Part shown: one piece after another, positions 26,483-38,199 of the stretch
Layout: every line of letters starts with the position of its first letter
Numbering within the stretch: the stretch's first letter is position 1
Translations under genes and position numbers: made by a program
Notes under the pieces: model-generated
Databases searched by the model: none
The model's input: the letters and a program-made list of their open reading frames with translations, nothing else
What the model was told of the DNA's origin: nothing
Origin: a virus
Taxonomy: Duplodnaviria; Caudoviricetes
Strand: one strand, 5' to 3'
Virus record (IMG/VR): IMGVR_UViG_3300033066_001617
Location: 4,145-68,144 of that record
Length of the DNA stretch: 64,000 nt

Positions 26483-26551
26483 AGGTGTCACCCCTGCCAA
26501 AAAGCCTAATGTTTACAATGGGTTAGCGGGTGCCCATTGAAGATACCGCAA

Positions 26552-26570
26552 AAACGTGCCAGTACGGGCG
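26552..26570. repeat. dispersed intergenic repeat AAACGTGCCAGTACGGGCG, copy 2
   Basis: 18/19 identical to 7525-7543; two more TGGCACG half-sites follow within about 60 bp. Confidence 0.8.
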
Positions 26571-26710
26571 GCATTTTTGCCCTACCGAAACCCTATGGCA
26601 TGGCACGAAACCGCGCCGTGGCACGCTTGCAGCGGGCGCATTTAAGCACGGGCGCCCCGTTTTGGTAGCAAATGCCATCTTGTGACCACTGCAAGCGTCC
26701 ACGGATGCGC

Positions 26711-27238
26711 CTACGACTTGGAGGGCTCTCCCTGGGTCTCCGCCGACGGCTTTTCGGCCTCTGCAACCGGCTCTGGCTTGGGCTCCAGGAAGCCGCTGCG
26801 ATCCACAGGCGGCTTGTCGCTCGAGCCGAAGCCACCCTCGCCACGCGCCGTCTCGTTGATGCTGGAGACCTCGAGCATCACCGGAACATGCACGGAATGG
26901 AAGACGGCCTGGGCGATCTTGTCTCCGGCGGCGGCCGCGAAGTTCTTCGTGCCGGTGTTGATGAGGACGACCTTGACCTCACCACGATAGTCAGGATCGA
27001 CGACGCCGCAGCCGACGATGATGCCTTGCTTCGCGGCGAGACCGCTGCGGGCTTCGACCTTCATCCACAGGTGCGGCGGAATCTCGAACTTGAGGCCGGT
27101 CGGAACGGCGAGACGCTCACCCGGCGCCAGATTGAAGGGCTCGACGCAGAAGAGGTCGAACCCAACAGAGTCGACCGAACCGTGCTCCGGCATCTTTGCA
27201 TTCTCGTGACACTTCAGAACCTTGAGAACAGTGCTCAT
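26711..27238 (-). CDS. dut: trimeric dUTPase
   Basis: GFDL, RSGLAAKQG, GVVDPDYRGE, GDKIAQAV, RGEGGFGSS. Confidence 0.95.
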   Translation of the reverse strand: MSTVLKVLKCHENAKMPEHGSVDSVGFDLFCVEPFNLAPGERLAVPTGLKFEIPPHLWMKVEARSGLAAKQGIIVGCGVVDPDYRGEVKVVLINTGTKNFAAAAGDKIAQAVFHSVHVPVMLEVSSINETARGEGGFGSSDKPPVDRSGFLEPKPEPVAEAEKPSAETQGEPSKS

Positions 27239-29154
27239 TTAGGAGCCTCGTATTGATGGGTTTTGAGATTGTACTTGACGATGGAGCCCCAATTCTGGCC
27301 GCATTCCAGATCGACCTTGGAGGGTACGACTTTCGGCTGGGCTTCGAGCATGATCTCGACAGACCGCCGATAATCTTCCGGATGTGCGCCGTCGATGCGG
27401 TCAATCTCGTCGTGTACTGTGAGCGCTGGAACGATTCCCTCGCGCCACATCATACGCATAGCACGTTTGTTCTCATCAGCGGCAAAGGGCTGTATCAAAG
27501 CATTCAGAGCCTTATTCGTACGAGCCCTGCGATTCGTGCCCGGGAAGATCGGGAAACGAGACCGACGACCATCAGGGGTACGAATCCATCCGCGCTGCTC
27601 GACGACCTTCTTGCAGATGTCGGCAAGCTCGCGAACGAACGGAGCCTCTTGGTCAAATTTACGGAGGATCTCTCTGGCTTCCGGCCCAGCCTTCTGGAAT
27701 TTGATTTCCTCACCATTGCGTTTCCAGGTGGACCATTCCCAGGGAAGCCCAAGGTCTTCTGCGAGAGCTCCGCCGCCCTGTCCGTAGGCGATACCCAAGG
27801 CGACGATCTTTGCCTGCGGTCTTGGTAGGCCAGTCATTTCAGCAACGAATTTATAGAAATCCGTCGAGGGGTCTTCTTGATAACGCTTGACGAGAGATTC
27901 TGCTGTCCGAAGCTTGTAATTGCCCGGCATCTTCAGATAGGTCTCGTAGGCCATCGTTACGATGCCACGAGGCTCCTGCTGGGAATAGTCGTGCGTTCCC
28001 CAGACACAACCTGGTTCAGCCTCGTAACATCCGCGGACGTCCGGGCCAATTTCTTCGTCACGTGCAGGGATCTGTTGAAGGTTGGGCGTCTGACTGGAGA
28101 AACGGCCGGTGATGGTGCCCTTGCTTCCACCAGTTTCCTTATCAGCCTTCAGTGAATTGAGAGTCGTGTGAATTCGCCCGTTGTGTTGGTGCTCTAGAAT
28201 ACCATTCTCAAGGAATGTTGAACGTGACTTATTGAGCTTCTTGCCCCTATTGATCAAACCCGCCAGGGGAATAGTTTTAGAAAGTGACTTAAGAATTTCA
28301 TCTGTTACTTTCTTCTTACCACTCTTCGGTGTCAGTTCAAATACGACACCGAAAGTCTCAAGGGCAGAGGCAATGGACTGTGTTTCAGTAAGGGATATCG
28401 TAACGCCGGTCTGCCTCTTTACTTCATCAATCACCTCTTGCTCTCGTTTGAGATAGGATTGCTGAAGTTGCTCTGTCTTCGATATATTGACCGGCACACC
28501 CCTAATTCGCATCTCTACGAGAAGAGGTATCAGGTCACATTCAAGTTCGTATACATTATCAAGTTCATCCGCTGTGATCAGTGGTGTAAGAACATCGAAA
28601 GTGTCTCGAGTTGATTTCGTATCTTGTTTCGCATATGTGGTCACTTCACTGGCATGAAATCGCCAGAGATTGGCTACTGTATCCTTGGGCTTGATTCCAC
28701 GTTTTCTCGCGGCTTCATGGAGCTCATCATACGCCTTGCCCATGTCGATACCGACATAGTCTTTCGCGAGAGAGTCCAGAGAGTAGACAAATCTGTGTTC
28801 GTCCAGGAGTGGAGCTTGGAACTGAACGTCGTGTAGTCGGCCCCTGACCGGAATACCGTGATATTTCAGCCAACCGAAATCATATACAGAATTGGCAAAA
28901 ACCTTTGACTGACTTTCGTCACCCAGCACGCTCTTGAGCCAGCCCTCCACACGGGCTGGGTCCATGTTCCCGCCACCTTCGTGACGAACCGGGAGATACT
29001 CGTGGAAGTTATCGGCGTGAACGGAATAGCCCACGACATGACCACGTCCTGGGAAAGCCCAGGCAGGTCCGGTATTCTTTAGATCTGTATCTTTTGTCTC
29101 TGTATCGAGTGTGATGAAGGGACCATGGAGGCGATCTGGAAGTTGAATGTCCAT
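27235..29154 (-). CDS. polA: family A DNA polymerase with 3'-5' exonuclease domain
   Basis: LDTET, TGRFSSQTPNLQQIP, motif A DYSQQEPR, motif B RPQAKIVALGIAYG, motif C VHDE. Confidence 0.95.
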   Translation of the reverse strand: MDIQLPDRLHGPFITLDTETKDTDLKNTGPAWAFPGRGHVVGYSVHADNFHEYLPVRHEGGGNMDPARVEGWLKSVLGDESQSKVFANSVYDFGWLKYHGIPVRGRLHDVQFQAPLLDEHRFVYSLDSLAKDYVGIDMGKAYDELHEAARKRGIKPKDTVANLWRFHASEVTTYAKQDTKSTRDTFDVLTPLITADELDNVYELECDLIPLLVEMRIRGVPVNISKTEQLQQSYLKREQEVIDEVKRQTGVTISLTETQSIASALETFGVVFELTPKSGKKKVTDEILKSLSKTIPLAGLINRGKKLNKSRSTFLENGILEHQHNGRIHTTLNSLKADKETGGSKGTITGRFSSQTPNLQQIPARDEEIGPDVRGCYEAEPGCVWGTHDYSQQEPRGIVTMAYETYLKMPGNYKLRTAESLVKRYQEDPSTDFYKFVAEMTGLPRPQAKIVALGIAYGQGGGALAEDLGLPWEWSTWKRNGEEIKFQKAGPEAREILRKFDQEAPFVRELADICKKVVEQRGWIRTPDGRRSRFPIFPGTNRRARTNKALNALIQPFAADENKRAMRMMWREGIVPALTVHDEIDRIDGAHPEDYRRSVEIMLEAQPKVVPSKVDLECGQNWGSIVKYNLKTHQYEAPK

Positions 29155-29178: not shown

Positions 29179-30192
29179 TTACTTGCCGACTACCCCGGCC
29201 ATCGGGTTGTCGACCTCGTCCTGGAACAGCGTGCGCTCGTGGTCCGAGAAAGACGTGTCTTTCAGCAGATGCTCCTTGAGCGCGTGATTCTTCCACGGGT
29301 GCTCGGTCGTACGGGAACCCTGCGACCACATCTTGCGGAACCGCTCGAAGAGGACCTCATCCTCGACGGGCTTGCCCATGGTCGCCTGATATTCCGTGAA
29401 CACCTCCGGCACCGCATTGCGGATGAATGCCGCCATCGCTTGGGCCGTAGTATACGTCCCGAGAAAGTTGGCGACAAGCTGTTCTTCGCTCGCAATGCCT
29501 CGCAGGTAGATGTATCCGCGGAGCAGGGCGCGCTTGCCGGCGTCGGTGGTCTTCCAGCCGAAGTTGCGCCGAGGACCTTCCTCACCTTCGCCGGCCGTGT
29601 CCTTGGGCTTCCGGCCGCGCGGCTGGGACGGCGCCTCGACGATCGGCATCGACTTGGTCGACTCGGTCATCGCGAGCACACGCATCGAGACCGACATCAG
29701 ATATTCGAAGTCGTACTGCGCATCCGGCTCACCCTCCAGGGTTTCCCAGAGGTCCATCTTGCGCTCTTTCAGCATCTTGATCAGGCGGCGCCACGCCTTG
29801 ATCATGTTGATCCAGATGCCGGTGCCGCCGAACTCGTCCCAGTCATCGTCCAGTTCGACCGAGAGGATCTTCTCGATATCCGCCGGCATGAGGTCGAACC
29901 GAGAAACCTTGCGGTCGCCGCTCAGGAAGTTGTGGGTCAGAAGACCGTAGCCCACGAAATCCGTGAGATCGTCGCGGCAACCATCGCGCCGAGCATCGTT
30001 CGCCATGACGATGATGTCGTTGCCGCGGCTCTTGGCCTGCGTCTCCATCCGATCCCACTTGCGGGAAAGGTTGAAGAACGCGCTCAGGCCCTCGTACTTC
30101 CGCCAGGACGAACCGTAGTCCCGGTCCTTGATCTCGAGCTGGGCGACGACCGCCATCCCAGCCTTTGTCGCCTCTTCGTTACTGACCGACAT
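29179..30192 (-). CDS. DUF1599 / Nmad1-like (nucleotide-modification-associated, MazG-like fold) protein with a tandem degenerate repeat
   Basis: KDRDYGSSWRKYEGLSAFFNLSRKWDRM...DDLTDFVGYGLL; probable start is the ATG at 30192. Confidence 0.6.
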   Translation of the reverse strand: MSVSNEEATKAGMAVVAQLEIKDRDYGSSWRKYEGLSAFFNLSRKWDRMETQAKSRGNDIIVMANDARRDGCRDDLTDFVGYGLLTHNFLSGDRKVSRFDLMPADIEKILSVELDDDWDEFGGTGIWINMIKAWRRLIKMLKERKMDLWETLEGEPDAQYDFEYLMSVSMRVLAMTESTKSMPIVEAPSQPRGRKPKDTAGEGEEGPRRNFGWKTTDAGKRALLRGYIYLRGIASEEQLVANFLGTYTTAQAMAAFIRNAVPEVFTEYQATMGKPVEDEVLFERFRKMWSQGSRTTEHPWKNHALKEHLLKDTSFSDHERTLFQDEVDNPMAGVVGK

Positions 30193-30949
30193 GAACAGCC
30201 TCCAATGGGTGTCTATCATAGAGGGAGAAAGCCTGAGCGACGTAGAGCATGCGCTCTTTCTCCTTCTGGGTTATCATGTTGCCTTGCAGCAACAAGCCAG
30301 CATATACCGGCAGAGCGTCGCATACTTGGTGGTATTTTGTCCCCATGATGGTGTTGCCCATCCTCGCTTCTCGGTTGCAGAAGACGAGGAACTCGAACGC
30401 GTCGAGATACGAGAAAATCGCTTTCTCAACGTCAGTGAGGTCACTTGGACCCATCTGGCGCCACTGAATAGTGTCGCTGACCTCATTGTAGAGGGCGTAG
30501 AGTTCCGGAGAATAACTCTTCGCCGTCCTGGGCATATCACCCAGAGCGTATTCCGGCGAATCATGATAGATGATGTGCCGCATCAATTCCGCACTGGCCT
30601 TGCTTGGGAAAATCTCCTGAAGCAACAAGAGAATTCCCCAGGTGTGCTGACCAGTGGTCTGAACAGCGATTGTCGGGAAAGCATGAAGACGAGCCGTCCA
30701 TCCAGATTCCCAGCGTTCCTGGATGGACATATTCGGCACCCAGCCGAGCGCCTCGAGTTCTTTGCGAACCGTCTTCACGATGGCGGCAGTAACCTGATCA
30801 TCCGGTGCTGGGACCAGGTTATAGGCGATCGCAAGGCAGGCCGACTTGACTTGCCTTCTACCGAGCTTGGTTTTGATCGCAAGGTAATTGTAGACGTCGG
30901 TGTTGACGCCTTCATGTTCCCATTTCGGGAGTTTCTGGGAATCGCTCAC
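30179..30949 (-). CDS. HD-domain 5'-deoxynucleotidase (YfbR-like) with an N-terminal extension
   Basis: RLH...QTTGQHTW...YHDSPEYALGDMP...YLDAFE. Confidence 0.8.
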   Translation of the reverse strand: MSDSQKLPKWEHEGVNTDVYNYLAIKTKLGRRQVKSACLAIAYNLVPAPDDQVTAAIVKTVRKELEALGWVPNMSIQERWESGWTARLHAFPTIAVQTTGQHTWGILLLLQEIFPSKASAELMRHIIYHDSPEYALGDMPRTAKSYSPELYALYNEVSDTIQWRQMGPSDLTDVEKAIFSYLDAFEFLVFCNREARMGNTIMGTKYHQVCDALPVYAGLLLQGNMITQKEKERMLYVAQAFSLYDRHPLEAVHVGQ

Positions 30950-32016
30950 TTCGCTGCCCTCCGCTTCAGCCAGTTGACGCAGACTTCCCGAAAGATTGGA
31001 ACTGCGATCTGACTGGCTTGATCCAGCGCCGCTTCCGGTCTCTTATTCTTGTAGTAGCGATAGGAGCGGATCAGGGGAACCAACAGGTCCGTCGCGACCT
31101 TCGAGACAGCCGGCGGCTCGGTGAATTCATCCGGAAGACGATAATCGCCTGCGACGCAATCGAAGAGATCGTTGCAAAGCACGGTCAAATACCCATCGAA
31201 ATTGAGCCGCTGATCGAGATCCATACCCATCAGCAGTTCATCGAAATACGTGAAGCCTTCGGTAGCCTCCACGTGATACGCGGTCTGCAGACCCCCACCT
31301 TGACCGATGTGATCCATCACGTCCTTGGAGCGTTCATTCTCCAAATAGAGATGGCTGTTGTTCGAGAACTGCCAGTACGATCCTGGCATCATATTGAGCA
31401 GAGCCGCCACATAGTGATGGAACAGACTGAAGTGAACCACGTTCGCGCCGAATGTACCGTAGACCAGGTCATTCGAGCGATTGATAACAGTGATGTTGAA
31501 ACGCCGAGATCCGTCTTTCATGGGAAGACAGCGAAGAAGGATCTCCGTGTTGCACGGAATATCCTTGGAATTGCGACCGAGATCCTCACCACTATCCCAA
31601 TGGGAAATGACCACACGCCGGCTGTCCGGGTTCTTGCTGAATTCCTTCACGGCGTACAGGATCTGGTCCTGTCCGAAATAGCTCCTCCACCGACGCCCAT
31701 ACGCCGATCCCATGATGGTCTTGCCATCGTCGGAATACTGACGCATGCCTGAATTGAAAAATGCCAAGCTGTCCAGATCATCGCGGCCACAAATCATGTG
31801 GAAGAACTCGATGATGTGGAAGAATGGATTGGCTTCCCGATGTCGGTCGTCGTAGAGGAAATTGTACGGAAACTGAAGTTCCGTCATGACCGGCTCTGGG
31901 TAGACGAGAACCGGCCCATTCCGGCTCTCCTCCCGTTGTCCGTACTTCATCAGATGTCGGAGGACCTGCGTGGAGATCTCTCCGACATTTCGGCCGACGA
32001 AATTGTACATCCTCAA
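30946..32016 (-). CDS. thymidylate-synthase-fold enzyme, probable dUMP hydroxymethylase
   Basis: AYGRRWR, DSRRVVI, catalytic DIPCN, NRSNDLVYGTFGANVVHFS (Asn at the uracil-specifying position), SHLY; 356 aa. Confidence 0.8.
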   Translation of the reverse strand: MRMYNFVGRNVGEISTQVLRHLMKYGQREESRNGPVLVYPEPVMTELQFPYNFLYDDRHREANPFFHIIEFFHMICGRDDLDSLAFFNSGMRQYSDDGKTIMGSAYGRRWRSYFGQDQILYAVKEFSKNPDSRRVVISHWDSGEDLGRNSKDIPCNTEILLRCLPMKDGSRRFNITVINRSNDLVYGTFGANVVHFSLFHHYVAALLNMMPGSYWQFSNNSHLYLENERSKDVMDHIGQGGGLQTAYHVEATEGFTYFDELLMGMDLDQRLNFDGYLTVLCNDLFDCVAGDYRLPDEFTEPPAVSKVATDLLVPLIRSYRYYKNKRPEAALDQASQIAVPIFREVCVNWLKRRAAK

Positions 32017-32804
32017 TACTCCGGAGCTTGGGTTCCGCTATAGGCGGCCTTCCATTCGACATCGACGTCCCAGCGAAGACCACCCTTGACGCCGTTCGCA
32101 TCTCGCCAGTTGTTCGACTGCTTCTGGACGGCGTGGACAATACCTGGGAACATCTTCTCGAGTTGCTTCGCGTTCTTCTCCATTACCTCGTGGGTGCGGT
32201 AGAGGGAAACGCCGCCAACCGCGTTCGAACCGTTCTTCTGGTCGATGCAGTAGTTCGTGATGATCCGGTTGTACCGTCCGGCCTGAAGCACGGAGAGAGT
32301 GATATACATATCCTGACGGATCTTGACCGCATCGGCACGAATGCCGTGCTTCCGCATGAAATCGAGATCGTATCCGTGGACCTGCATCTGACGAGTGCAG
32401 TCCTTGAAACGAAGAGGGAAATTGTTGTCGTTGAAAGTCCTCTGGGAAATGCCGACCAGAGGAAAGCCTTGTCCCAGGAGATCCTGCAGGATGTCGAAAC
32501 AGTTGTCGACATCCTCAGGCTTGCAGGGAGCCAGACGGCTGCTCTTCGGATCTGCCCAATGGGCGAACTTCAGATCGTCATCGCACACGATGACATGGCG
32601 ATCCTCGCAGGTGTCCCAGATATGCTGGATGACCTTGGAAAGACCATTGACCGGACGAGCCACCGCATTCCGACCCAGCGCCCGATGAACTTCAACCTCG
32701 TCGGGCGGACAGATGATCTGGGTTATCGCACGAGTTCTGGGACCCATGAAATCCCACGTGATCTGAGTCGAGGTCCGGCCACGACTCGCGATGAAAATCT
32801 TCAT
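32013..32804 (-). CDS. GT-A fold glycosyltransferase, TET/JBP-associated (TAGT/GREB1-like) type
   Basis: KIFIASRGR, IVCDDDL (DxD-like), RQDMYITL, SNAVGG, C-terminal RWDVDVEWKAAY. Confidence 0.7.
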   Translation of the reverse strand: MKIFIASRGRTSTQITWDFMGPRTRAITQIICPPDEVEVHRALGRNAVARPVNGLSKVIQHIWDTCEDRHVIVCDDDLKFAHWADPKSSRLAPCKPEDVDNCFDILQDLLGQGFPLVGISQRTFNDNNFPLRFKDCTRQMQVHGYDLDFMRKHGIRADAVKIRQDMYITLSVLQAGRYNRIITNYCIDQKNGSNAVGGVSLYRTHEVMEKNAKQLEKMFPGIVHAVQKQSNNWRDANGVKGGLRWDVDVEWKAAYSGTQAPEY

Positions 32805-32829
32805 GGAACCCTCTCTGTTGGATGGTTAC

Positions 32830-32858
32830 AGTTTAGCGCCGGTACCCGCCAAGGACAA
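32830..32858 (-). promoter_or_regulatory. sigma70-like promoter TTGTCC-N17-TAAACT upstream of the glycosyltransferase
   Basis: Exact 17-bp spacer filling the 56-bp gap; GAGAGGG SD follows. Confidence 0.55.
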
Positions 32859-32860
32859 TC

Positions 32861-33754
32861 TTAGAGAGGTCTTGTGGAGGGTACGAATCTATTCTTGAGG
32901 CGTTCGCCACCCTGGGCCTTGATGTACTTGGCGATCTCGCAAAGGGCGAACTGGACGCAGTGCAGATCAAACTCGTTTATCGGACTTGGCATCCAGGATT
33001 CCATTCGCTTAACACAGATATCGTGTAACGCCTTGATGCAGGCCAGACCGAATTTCTCGTTCATCTTCTTGGACGCCTCGCCGCCCAATAGAAGATTGAT
33101 GCCCCTACGAGCTCCAGGCCCAACAGGAGTCCATTCGAACCGATCCGTGCAATTCCGAAGAATTGGCGTCAACATGACATCTTGCAGCACTTCCTTCGTC
33201 ATGAAGCCCGTGCCGCCGAAACCGGGAAAGTTGTACATCATCTCACCGACGGCTTGCCATTTCTGGGTCCGTGTGGCGATGTCGATCAGACCAGGTAGAT
33301 GTTCCCAAAGGGTTCTAAGATAATGCTTGACAACGACGATCCACTTCTTGTCGGCGATACCGCCGTTCGTGATGAGATATGCGCTGGTGAAACTCTTGAG
33401 GCCGCGGTTGTTCCTGTCCTCAGCGACATCCATGATGTGCTGGGGATTCCACTCTCGCTGATAACCCAGAGCCTGACAGAATTCCACGGTCCCGAAATAG
33501 CGGGCGATGGCGCAGTTGATGAACTGGATGCGATTGGGTTGATCGAAATTGGGCTCGTACCAATTCTTCAGGAGCCACTGTGTCGTGCGATCGTGAATAC
33601 GCAGGACATTCGTGAACTTGAAAGTGCGTAGAATGGTGTCATTCGTCCAGGGGGAGGGCTTTCCGGCGACCCTTGCGAGTCGAATACGTTCCCTTTCGTG
33701 GAGATAATAGAAGAAAGTGTCGAGTCTCTTCGGATCAAAATGGATCTCAGACAT
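32861..33754 (-). CDS. aGPT-Pplase1 / 5-hmdU DNA kinase helical-domain family protein
   Basis: HERERIRLAR..GKPSPWTNDTILRTFKFTNVLRIHDR, HhH-like FPGFGGTGFMTKEV, VGPGARRG, QFALCEIAKY. Confidence 0.75.
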   Translation of the reverse strand: MSEIHFDPKRLDTFFYYLHERERIRLARVAGKPSPWTNDTILRTFKFTNVLRIHDRTTQWLLKNWYEPNFDQPNRIQFINCAIARYFGTVEFCQALGYQREWNPQHIMDVAEDRNNRGLKSFTSAYLITNGGIADKKWIVVVKHYLRTLWEHLPGLIDIATRTQKWQAVGEMMYNFPGFGGTGFMTKEVLQDVMLTPILRNCTDRFEWTPVGPGARRGINLLLGGEASKKMNEKFGLACIKALHDICVKRMESWMPSPINEFDLHCVQFALCEIAKYIKAQGGERLKNRFVPSTRPL

Positions 33755-33769
33755 CTATATCTCCATACG

Positions 33770-33799
33770 AAAACGGCCGCATCCCGAAGAATGCGGCCG
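33770..33799 (-). terminator. rho-independent terminator-like hairpin
   Basis: 9-bp stem CGGCCGCAT/ATGCGGCCG followed by TTTT on the - strand. Confidence 0.65.
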
Positions 33800-33822
33800 C
33801 TTCTGTCGTCCTGGTGGCGAAA

Positions 33823-34708: not shown

Positions 34709-34753
34709 AACCTAGCAAGACTGATCCGACTTTACAATGGTAGTCTTGCTAGG
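34709..34753 (-). promoter_or_regulatory. promoter TTGTAA-N17-TAGGTT with a 12-bp perfect inverted repeat
   Basis: CCTAGCAAGACT (34711-34722) and AGTCTTGCTAGG (34742-34753) bracket the -35 and overlap the -10. Confidence 0.55.
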
Positions 34754-34777
34754 CTGAACCGATTTCGGGTCAGGCCG

Positions 34778-36450: not shown

Positions 36451-38199
36451 CTAAGCGGTGGCGAGAATTTCTCTGAGGTCTACAAGCATCGTAGCGACGT
36501 CAATCTTACCTTGCAGATTATTGACGATGAAATCATCAATGGAATGTTCAGTCTTCATATAGATGTCGGTGACTCTCTTTGTCTGCCCAGCGCGATGATT
36601 TCGATCCATCGCCTGGAGATAGATTTCCAAGTTCATATCGTAGCTGTACCAGATCTTGAATTCCGCCTCGTTGATGTTTAGACCGATACCACCTGTGGCC
36701 GGATTCATGATGATCCGGTTATGTGTCTTGGAATCTTTGAATTGCTGAAGGGCGGCAGCGCGCTGACTATCGTTCCCAGCATAGATCAAGTAAGGCATAT
36801 CCGCCTTTTTCATCTCTCCGCCGAGCAACGTCACGTCTGGGCGGAACTTGGCCCAGATGATAGTCTTTGAAGCGTCTCCGATTTCCTCCAGTGTCGCCAC
36901 CGTTTCGGCAGCCCGATTGGTCGGAATGTCAATGTGTTCTTTCTCTTCGGTCGTGGCGTGACCGCAGAGTATCTGATGCAGTCGCATGATGCGCGTGATC
37001 GCAAGCGCGCCGGAAATAATGTGGCCGTCCTGGGTCTCTGTGATGAAATTCTTCTTGAGATCTTGATAGATCTTGAACTGATCAGGATGGAATTCGACGA
37101 TGCGATTCATCGCCATACGTTCTGGTAGATCCAGACAGTCCACCTTCAGTACGCGATAGCTGTAGGCGTCGATCTTCTGTTGCAACTCCTCCATATTCTT
37201 GTACGATTTGACTTGTTTGTTTTCCCAGCCTCCCATGACGCAGTAGTAATTCCTGAAGTCCGTCATGTACGGCATGCCCAGGATATTCTCGTCCAAGAAA
37301 TTGAACTGAGACTGAATATCCATTGGACCCTGGGTGATCGGTGTGCCAGTCGCAATCCTGCGATACGTGCAGAGTTTCCCGACCATGATAATGCCGTCGG
37401 TACGTTTTGAACTCATATGTTTGATACGAGAAGATTCGTCTACGATCATAAGAGTCTCACCCATTTCGCAGAAGCGCATCGCGAGAGCACGACCCTTGTC
37501 TGTCGAGAACGCATCGACGTTCATCGCCAGGATCTTCAGATAACCCATTGGTAGGCGGTTGATCTTCTCCTCAACATCCTCGGCCTTGGAGGCAGAATAA
37601 AGAACACTGATCCACTTGATCCCTTTCGGGGCATGGACCGGAAACTGTTCCTCCAGCCATTGACGATGAACACCTTTCGGCGCCACGATAAGAACTTGTG
37701 TGATTTTGACTTGCAGAAATAGATAGATGGCAGTGTCGATCAGGACTTTCGTCTTGCCCGTGCCCATTTCCATGAACAGCCCAAAGGCTTTCACATCACG
37801 AGACAGCATGAAGGCGCGAAGCTGATGATCGAATGGCTTTGTGCCGAATTCGTAATTGATGCCGCCACATTCGGCTATCAATTGTTCGGTGGTTAGATGC
37901 TTCCGAGATGTAATGACTTCGGCTGCATTGTCGGCATTACCGAGTCCTTCTAGAAATTGATGAGTGGACTCTTCCCAATTGATCTGCGTCGGAAGATTGT
38001 TTATGAAATGTCGAATAACCTGACCCTTGGGCTGGAGCCAGAGAGAACTGCCGACCCACTTCTTCTTTCCAGGGGCTGAGTTCCCAACGTCCATGAATTT
38101 GGCGAATATCTTACCAGAGATTATCAGGTACTTTCCATTAAATTCTGCTGTAAGCGGGCGGCCCGCTGCATAGGGCTGGAATGGCGCTTGGCCTTGCAT
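36451..38199 (-). CDS. SNF2-family (SF2) helicase
   Basis: PFDHQ, MEMGTGKT, IVDESS, ATGTP, TGGIGLN, QAMDRNHRAGQ. Confidence 0.9.
   Translation of the reverse strand: MQGQAPFQPYAAGRPLTAEFNGKYLIISGKIFAKFMDVGNSAPGKKKWVGSSLWLQPKGQVIRHFINNLPTQINWEESTHQFLEGLGNADNAAEVITSRKHLTTEQLIAECGGINYEFGTKPFDHQLRAFMLSRDVKAFGLFMEMGTGKTKVLIDTAIYLFLQVKITQVLIVAPKGVHRQWLEEQFPVHAPKGIKWISVLYSASKAEDVEEKINRLPMGYLKILAMNVDAFSTDKGRALAMRFCEMGETLMIVDESSRIKHMSSKRTDGIIMVGKLCTYRRIATGTPITQGPMDIQSQFNFLDENILGMPYMTDFRNYYCVMGGWENKQVKSYKNMEELQQKIDAYSYRVLKVDCLDLPERMAMNRIVEFHPDQFKIYQDLKKNFITETQDGHIISGALAITRIMRLHQILCGHATTEEKEHIDIPTNRAAETVATLEEIGDASKTIIWAKFRPDVTLLGGEMKKADMPYLIYAGNDSQRAAALQQFKDSKTHNRIIMNPATGGIGLNINEAEFKIWYSYDMNLEIYLQAMDRNHRAGQTKRVTDIYMKTEHSIDDFIVNNLQGKIDVATMLVDLREILATA

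Follow-up and report, generated by a model that had tools for sequence, protein, structure and literature searches.

A predicted TAGT-family glycosyltransferase beside a putative dUMP hydroxymethylase in an uncultured phage: a candidate route to glycosylated 5-hydroxymethyluracil in DNA

The stretch of viral DNA analyzed in this work (the window, 64,000 nucleotides, i.e., bases 4145-68144 of a 68,144-bp IMG/VR record with a CheckV completeness of 78%) carries in its replication module three neighbouring genes, encoding a stand-alone protein of aGPT-Pplase clade 1 with the HMUDK_hel domain (hereafter Pplase1), a predicted DNA glycosyltransferase (GT), and a thymidylate synthase (TS)-fold enzyme. 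We consider it probable, with some reserve, that the GT uses a host nucleotide sugar for the post-replicative O-glycosylation of 5-hydroxymethyluracil (hmU) in the phage DNA. The base that replaces thymine in this phage would probably be coated with sugar, like base J in trypanosomes. The source appears to be an uncultured siphovirus-like phage, and its replication module is syntenic with that of the M6/YuA/PhiJL001 group (Mesyanzhinovviridae).

The GT belongs, at the level of profiles, to the TAGT family, a name that, like Nmad and aGPT-Pplase, reportedly goes back to Iyer et al. in 2013. Its minus-strand open reading frame (ORF) begins with an ATG at 32804 and encodes a protein of 263 aa whose DDD motif is embedded in VCDDDLKF (residues 72-79); a preliminary description, made from the sequence, had been based on this DDD-containing ORF. 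The PF20691 (TAGT) profile aligns with it over positions 1-201 of 205 (23.6 bits, E 5.6e-5) and is matched by 60 of the 61 aligned GT homologues at E<=1e-3 (best 2.6e-27), and phrog_842 ("beta-glucosyl-HMC-alpha-glucosyltransferase") matches the GT at 1.3e-29. An exhaustive HMMER search, used in place of a word-indexed one that yielded two proteins only, recovered 1307 representative clusters at E<=1e-3, with lengths that almost always fall within 250-290 aa. The near- or fully invariant residues are R10, D75-D76-D77, R122, D165, G176, N179, G197-G198, Y202, and R203. R10, the DDD triplet, and D165 correspond to the motif R...DDD...EDY/F of phage GT-A enzymes that have been shown to glycosylate 5-hydroxymethylcytosine (5hmC) in DNA and are reported to resemble the JGT of T. 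cruzi (bioRxiv 10.1101/2023.12.21.572611).

The AlphaFold2 model of the protein is a confident single-domain GT-A fold (pLDDT 93.4, pTM 0.91). Its structural matches in the PDB are TarP, RmlT, TarS, and GpgS (E ~1e-6, TM ~0.45-0.5, identity 10-14%), the same solved neighbours as are reported for phage DNA GT-A enzymes (bioRxiv 10.1101/2023.12.21.572611); no JGT chain was found among them, and a phmmer search of the GT against the PDB sequences gave nothing even at E 10. In the BFVD, the model matches TAGT-domain phage proteins with TM values of 0.73-0.89, including B2ZYD7 of phiRSL1 and the enzyme of Klebsiella phage PKO111. The GT-A fold, the family-level PF20691 relationship, the phrog_842 match, and the BFVD neighbours all point to a TAGT-family GT-A DNA glycosyltransferase, in agreement with the assignment of the preliminary description. 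A GT-B enzyme of the T4 DNA glucosyltransferase type was discarded on the basis of the fold, with no T4 AGT or BGT chain among the PDB matches listed, and a prophage surface-glycan GT was rejected in view of the genomic context.

The second component of the proposed system is the TS homologue, which retains the catalytic Cys (in DIPCN) and, in GANVVHF, an Asn at the position of E. coli N177. HMMER alignments to PDB sequences place this Asn opposite the Asn of T4 td and the Asp of the cytosine-specific MilA, and the uracil-specifying Asn is kept in all nine of the aligned GT-adjacent TS homologues. The nearest phage relatives are the enzymes of M6, YuA, Ab18, and PAE1 (33-34% identity over the full length), and some relatives, such as those of ZC01 and MP1412, are annotated in their records as deoxyuridylate hydroxymethyltransferase. 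Phages with a 5-hydroxymethyldeoxyuridine (5-hmdU) DNA kinase (5-HMUDK), M6 included, have been reported to co-encode a dUMP hydroxymethyltransferase (PMC5889632), and the modified thymidine of M6 is built from 5-hmdU (PMC8989533). From the identity to the M6/Ab18-type enzymes and the linkage to HMUDK_hel we infer that the TS homologue hydroxymethylates its substrate and is a dUMP 5-hydroxymethylase. The idea, already advanced in the preliminary description, that the acceptor comes from the TS route is thus consistent with the conserved Cys and uracil-type Asn, with the 33-34% identity to M6/Ab18, and with the failure to find a TET/JBP enzyme. A 5hmC acceptor was rejected on that same Asn and on the lack of a TET hit.

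Screening the whole 68,144-bp contig for other modification genes gave concordant results. Searches with hidden Markov models (HMMs) returned no match to Tet_JBP, NTP_transferase, or Epimerase and none, at E<=1, to PF18724 (ADDT, the clade-2 aGPT-Pplase or amino-acid:DNA transferase, AADT). By tblastn, the contig contained no match to the M6 kinase gp54 (at E<=0.01), nor to the M6 AADT gp51, the pyridoxal phosphate (PLP) enzyme gp52, the radical-SAM (rSAM) enzyme gp53, or dCMP deaminase. Cytosine methyltransferase and dCTPase families were absent from the 19 replication-module proteins (17.6-38.2 kb) to which that scan was limited. The earlier statement that neither a TET/JBP dioxygenase nor a nucleotide-sugar synthesis gene is visible in the window therefore extends to the whole contig, and a sugar donor supplied by the host fits this absence in a contig that is 78% complete. 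With no TET/JBP or other alternative chemistry found in the contig, pre-replicative hmU is the only visible acceptor; likewise, since these screens were negative, no tailoring transferase other than the GT is visible.

On this basis we propose a pathway in which the dUTPase would supply dUMP, the TS-fold enzyme would convert it into 5-hydroxymethyl-dUMP, and host kinases would raise the latter to the triphosphate, which the phage family A DNA polymerase (PolA) would incorporate instead of dTTP; the HD-domain nucleotidase may deplete the competing thymidine nucleotides. After replication, the GT would move a sugar from a host nucleotide sugar, with UDP-glucose as the default guess, onto the 5-hydroxymethyl group of hmU in DNA. 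The product would be a base-J-like 5-(glycosyloxymethyl)uracil, expected to block host nucleases. The analysis shows the identities of the genes, the fold and motifs of the GT, the synteny, the co-occurrence, and the missing matches to the families and M6 proteins named above; the chemistry throughout, its timing at the level of DNA, and the sugar donor are what we infer. Action at the level of DNA is favoured by the precedent of the family, by the linkage to HMUDK_hel, and by the basic isoelectric points (pI) of the GT (8.6) and Pplase1 (9.4), which lend weak support to DNA binding (TS and HD have a pI of ~6).

The association of the three genes recurs in related loci. These comprise 10 loci from viruses and 27 from metagenomes, of which about four are duplicates, retrieved with one peptide pattern from an 11-sequence alignment, and hence they sample a single GT subclade; the 61-sequence GT alignment was too diverse for peptide patterns, and a pattern scan from the single protein returned no loci. 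The GT adjoins Pplase1 in ~30 of ~33 distinct loci, where the stop codon of one gene often overlaps the start codon of the next, and a TS-fold gene adjoins the GT in 10/10 viral loci and in essentially all metagenome loci with enough flank. The co-occurrence of GT homologues with TS-fold genes, on which the preliminary description had staked its proposal, was observed wherever the flank sufficed. No kinase, AADT, or PLP match was found in the 37 loci. Most of them have a radical-SAM/SPASM gene between GT and TS, and some have two together with a second GT, which would imply a further tailoring of the sugar or the base in these relatives. The minimal form Pplase1-GT-TS-HD without radical-SAM was seen, among the related loci, only in the window, L008, and L020. 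The window is a minimal cassette, in which a single GT is accompanied by neither a radical-SAM enzyme nor genes for sugar synthesis, as far as the searches show, and this makes it a clean candidate for reconstitution in vitro.

Homologous sets of GT and TS, in most cases with Pplase1, are also present in cultured phages and in one complete genome. PhiJL001 possesses gp19 (Pplase1), gp22 (GT), gp24 (TS), and PolA, and is syntenic with the window through PolA. In the Ralstonia phage phiRSL1 (ORF229-238), Pplase1 (ORF231) and TS are accompanied by three TAGT genes, i.e., two more than in the window, and by nucleotidyltransferases, an APS kinase, and a sulfotransferase, a set that suggests a sulfated glycan on hmU. 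The Brevibacterium phage LuckyBarnes (gp38-gp41) exhibits the order TS-GT-GT-Pplase1; it differs from the window in having a second GT and in the fusion of TS to DUF1599. MW202897, a complete circular genome of 40 kb, shows the arrangement GT-"pyrimidine hmase"-HD, and no HMUDK_hel was found in it, so that GT and TS can stand alone, without the Pplase1 of the window. As a separate observation, the region ORF231-238 of phiRSL1 (L003 4232-11466) contains two nucleotidyltransferases alongside the three GTs, the APS kinase, and the sulfotransferase. A literature search found no report on the DNA chemistry of PhiJL001, LuckyBarnes, phiRSL1, or MW202897. Viromes from the sea, from fresh water, and from sludge contain GTs of this class in abundance.

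A different account arises from Pplase1 itself, a homologue of M6 gp55, PhiJL001 gp19, and phiRSL1 ORF231. Its residues Cys272-Glu273 (motif LCExxKY) are invariant in 22/22 aligned clade-1 proteins, and in a separate HMM alignment LuckyBarnes gp38 also has the Cys-Glu pair. Both mafft and hhalign put Cys247 of M6 gp51, the only gp51 Cys aligned, on Cys272, and clade-2 enzymes, to which gp51 belongs, cannot do without their conserved Cys and a Glu close to it (PMC8989533). This suggests that the "helical domain" of Pplase1 is an enzyme, whose role may be either the recognition of hmU in DNA or a second chemical step. If the latter were correct, Pplase1 would act first or last on the C5 substituent through attack of its Cys at C6, the GT would glycosylate a Pplase1-installed group or the sugar would be an intermediate displaced or rearranged by Pplase1, and the final base would not be a simple glycosyl-hmU. 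We regard this as rather unlikely, even though the close and often overlapping adjacency of the two genes, the invariant dyad, its alignment with gp51, and the radical-SAM/SPASM genes beside the GT in many relatives, with the tailoring that they imply, all speak for it. Indeed, M6 gp55, also of clade 1, is dispensable for glycinylation in vitro (PMC8989533), no kinase that could give a leaving group was found in the contig, and the hhalign match to gp51 is non-significant (E 0.09). Moreover, Pplase1 is also found together with TS in GT-less phages of the M6 type, so that the adjacency may reflect a shared backbone, and MW202897 has GT-TS and no Pplase1; the protein thus appears to be a frequent, not an obligatory, partner of the GT. 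In its fullest form, a kinase-free Pplase1 and a TAGT-type GT would constitute a distinct two-enzyme chemistry on hmU-DNA, yielding a base not yet described and elaborated by radical-SAM/SPASM enzymes in relatives, which we hold to be unlikely. Possibly, glycosylation would here replace phosphorylation as the handle, with Pplase1 exchanging, rearranging, or removing the C5 substituent; by extension, Pplase1 could be the long-sought activity that reverts unmodified hmU to thymine in partially modified phage genomes, the hmdU reversion to thymidine in 5-HMUDK phages being called unexplained in PMC5889632. It is equally conceivable that Pplase1 installs the true acceptor.

The position of the GT among genes of nucleotide metabolism (TS, HD, dUTPase) and its translational coupling to TS would also be expected if it glycosylated hmdUMP or hmdUTP and the polymerase then incorporated the product. 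This appears quite improbable, as DNA is the substrate of all the characterized relatives cited here (the T2/T6 TAGT, JGT, and the phage GT-A enzymes, which use 5hmC-DNA), the GT is basic and the nucleotide enzymes beside it are acidic, and it is linked to a protein whose helical domain Pfam names after 5-hmdU DNA kinases. As for an acceptor not derived from uracil, either the 5hmC known from T-even phages or a target other than DNA, e.g., a cell-wall polymer (cf. TarP), we judge it highly improbable: the best-known PF20691 member does act on glucosyl-hmC, and the top solved neighbours are GT-A enzymes that act on wall teichoic acid or on other non-DNA targets, but these structural matches are at the level of the fold, the TS has the uracil-type Asn and not the Asp of MilA, the screens revealed neither TET in the contig nor cytosine methyltransferase or dCTPase in the replication-module proteins scanned, and the GT gene sits inside the replication module, with a linkage to TS and HMUDK_hel that recurs in dozens of loci.

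Some points weigh against the post-replicative glycosylation of hmU that we favour. The choice between a hydroxymethylase and an ordinary methylase for the TS homologue follows from relatedness, with no diagnostic residue, and the invariant Cys-Glu of Pplase1, similar to the clade-2 dyad, means that the true acceptor could be a Pplase1 product and not hmU. The GT scores under the Pfam gathering threshold for TAGT (23.6 vs 27.5 bits), and where the EDY/F motif has Glu, the GT has Gln164 (in RQDMY); several of the closest relatives in the alignment also do not have Glu at this position. A search of the literature revealed no report of chemistry for the GT or its close relatives, nor of glycosylated hmU in such phages; for phages at large, it revealed none of glycosylated hmU apart from the different, long-linker bases of the SP-15/YerA41 type. 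Finally, since the contig is 78% complete, a kinase, donor-synthesis, or tailoring gene could reside in the missing part.

The comparison with known systems helps to place the proposed pathway. The predicted product is, like the kinetoplastid base J made by JBP1/2 and JGT, an O-glycosylated hmU in DNA, and the GT-A transferase family is reported to be structurally like JGT (bioRxiv 10.1101/2023.12.21.572611). Unlike in base J, the hmU of the window would derive from a pre-replicative TS-type hydroxymethylase and not from a TET/JBP dioxygenase, and the substitution would be expected genome-wide, whereas base J replaces ~1% of T. If this reading is true, bacterial viruses would have a counterpart of the base J of trypanosomes that arises via a different route, and the sugar-coated thymine analogues would shield the phage DNA from restriction and CRISPR nucleases.

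The founder of PF20691, the T2/T6 beta-glucosyl-HMC-alpha-glucosyltransferase (phrog_842), resembles the GT in profile-level family, in GT-A fold, and in a DNA substrate that derives from a TS-family hydroxymethylase, and it acts on DNA (PMC13216743). However, the T6 enzyme requires the prior action of a GT-B alpha-GT, since it attaches its glucose, the second one, to alpha-glucosyl-hmC, whereas the window has no GT-B and a uracil-type hydroxymethylase, and its GT would have to act first, as the sole transferase. Of 753 phage genomes, 288 are noted to carry such solitary TAGTs, whose function is undefined (PMC13216743). The hypermodification clusters of M6, PaMx11, ViI, PhiW-14, and SP10 (PMC5889632, PMC8989533) share with the window, in M6 numbering and with the order kept, gp55 (Pplase1), gp58 (TS), gp59 (HD), and gp62 (PolA), but the window contig has no match to the 5-hmdU DNA kinase, the clade-2 AADT, the M6 PLP enzyme, or the M6 rSAM enzyme. 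Where M6 has two small ORFs between gp55 and gp58, the window has the GT, which appears to occupy the genomic place of the M6-type kinase/AADT/PLP/rSAM cassette.

Pyle et al. mined ~20,000 GT-A contigs whose neighbours were about evenly split between 5mYOX and ThyS, the ThyS-linked ones including cultured phages (Cell Rep 2024; bioRxiv 10.1101/2023.12.21.572611). The phage GT-A enzymes of Pyle et al. and of Burke et al. (PMC8256090) agree with the GT in the GT-A fold, in the motif R...DDD...(E)D-Y/F, in TarP as top solved neighbour, and in a pyrimidine-hydroxymethylation cluster; the assayed ones, however, act on TET-made 5hmC in a GpC context, whereas the partner in the window is a uracil-type TS, so that the acceptor should be genome-wide hmU. 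In the text consulted, we found no ThyS-linked GT-A among the enzymes assayed, and Pyle et al. make no mention of Pplase1/HMUDK_hel or radical-SAM neighbours; the GT-Pplase1-rSAM association is not mentioned by Lee et al. (PMC8989533) either. The gene set is thus one already predicted and recurrent in many phages, and the GT of the window is a further member of the family mined next to ThyS.

The junctions of the genes bear on how the set is expressed. The GT/TS junction (32008..32022, minus strand) reads GGAG-TAT-TGA-GG-ATG, with a Shine-Dalgarno (SD) sequence inside the 3' end of the GT gene. The TS ATG (32010-32008) begins 2 nt past the GT stop TGA (32015-32013), the GGAG lies 8 nt upstream of it, and the N-terminus read from this ATG aligns flush with M6 gp58 and further homologues; an alternative TTG start at 32016 overlaps the GT stop (TTGA) but is without usable SD spacing. 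The tight coupling of GT and TS claimed in the preliminary description stands, but the ATGA overlap on which it was based does not, the junction being TGAggATG, or TTGA with the alternative start. A promoter of its own had also been assigned to the GT. The 56-nt gap (32805-32860) that separates the GT from the upstream Pplase1 gene does contain TTGTCC-N17-TAAACT (32858-32830, minus strand), followed by AGAGAGGG ~5 nt ahead of the GT ATG, and the geometry is plausible, with the -10 ending ~25 nt upstream of the ATG and the SD between them. The match itself is weak (8/12). A promoter scanner with a 9/12 threshold did not report the site at 32830-32858, and shuffled sequence yielded as many hits as the five that it reported in 26-39 kb; sites of 8/12 occur once per 744 nt of strand and in 3.5% of random 56-nt windows. 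The site is not conserved, as relatives have no gap between Pplase1 and GT, whose genes abut or overlap. As RNA, the gap is unstructured (z +1.2). The sequence and the gap were correctly described.

True ATGA overlaps are found both at Pplase1-GT and at GT-TS in L008, which has the gene order of the window. Since no space, or even an overlap, is left between Pplase1 and the GT in the closest relatives, the conserved unit begins at least one gene before the GT and would include at least Pplase1-GT-TS. The single transcript headed by the GT and comprising TS, HD, and "Nmad1" that had been envisaged does not agree with this upstream member, nor with the array of genes, which extends past "Nmad1" through PolA and dUTPase. 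Between the 295-aa gene and the Pplase1 gene, ~20 nt upstream of the Pplase1 start codon and within the otherwise packed array, lies a GC-rich hairpin of 14 bp with a UUCG-type loop (33774..33803, minus strand), followed by UUUUCGUAU. It is very stable (-31.2 kcal/mol, z -5.08; 0/200 shuffles as stable) and could be a terminator, an attenuator, or an RNA-stability element.

Concerning the "Nmad1" protein, hmmscan gave no Pfam or PHROG hit, and a direct search with PF07659 (DUF1599) gave, at 29938-30129, a match under the cut-off (E 0.004, 14 bits); the label is therefore weakly supported. The protein measures 337-346 aa depending on the start, 337 from ATG 30192. LuckyBarnes gp41 (L016 4601-6154) is a fusion in which the TS homologue is followed, at the C-terminus, by a region with a ...YG.SWRK...R..DR.. 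motif, which is also present at the N-terminus of the "Nmad1" protein of the window (29938-30129), and short ORFs resembling this N-terminus come after TS in many relatives. The DUF1599-like domain seems to be functionally tied to the hydroxymethylase.

The genes of the array and the related genes mentioned in the text are collected in Table 1.

Table 1. Genes of the replication-module array, in array order, and related genes in other loci.
Feature	Coordinates	Strand	Remarks
SNF2 helicase	36451-38199	-	first in array order
Pam3 gp33-like and gp34-like proteins	between SNF2 helicase and 295-aa gene	-	
295-aa Ala/Glu-rich protein	directly before Pplase1 gene	-	no family
Pplase1 (stand-alone aGPT-Pplase clade 1 / HMUDK_hel protein), 297 aa	32861..33754	-	PF18723 at 1.7e-38
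GT, 263 aa	32013..32804	-	ORF; predicted GT-A fold, TAGT family
TS-fold enzyme, putative dUMP 5-hydroxymethylase	30946..32010	-	PF00303 at 3e-16; phrog_5131 at 6.7e-79
HD-domain YfbR-like 5'-deoxynucleotidase	30179..30949	-	PF12917 27.1 bits vs 25.9 cut-off; M6 gp59 homologue
"Nmad1", 337 aa	29179..30192	-	N-terminus weakly DUF1599-like; likely start ATG 30192 behind GGAGG
PolA (family A DNA polymerase)	27235..29154	-	syntenic with M6 gp62 and PhiJL001 gp28; tblastn 2e-93 and 4e-88
dUTPase (source of dUMP)	26711..27238	-	PF00692 at 3.3e-29; 4-nt overlap with PolA stop
5'-3' exonuclease, Dda-like helicase, terminase	beyond dUTPase	-	
Clade-1 Pplase1 proteins with Cys-Glu	window 32861-33754; L004 8261-9232; L002 6635-7501; L003 10420-11466; L016 7762-8616	- (window)	
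Radical-SAM/SPASM genes near GT	L005 10728-11762; L010 10731-11771; L014 11534-13453; most of L019-L045		

Every gene from ~38.2 to ~19.9 kb is carried by the minus strand, neighbouring genes being separated by a few nucleotides or overlapping, and downstream the packed array runs through PolA and dUTPase up to a 210-nt gap at 26501-26710. The start of the HD gene overlaps the TS stop (GTGA), and tblastn matches to this gene were obtained with both M6 gp59 and PhiJL001 gp25 as queries.

When the region was compared with phage records by blastn, two short, irrelevant matches were all that emerged. Of the words sampled from 30900-33800, a fraction of 0.92 is present, near-identical, in one unlabelled sequencing run of 2025, and about half are present in one activated-sludge metagenome run from a second study, which hints at a wastewater habitat for this phage. 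Lastly, a perfect 12-bp inverted repeat, CCTAGCAAGACT...AGTCTTGCTAGG, with a 19-nt loop (34711-34777, minus strand), abuts the listed TTG start of the 295-aa Ala/Glu-rich gene.

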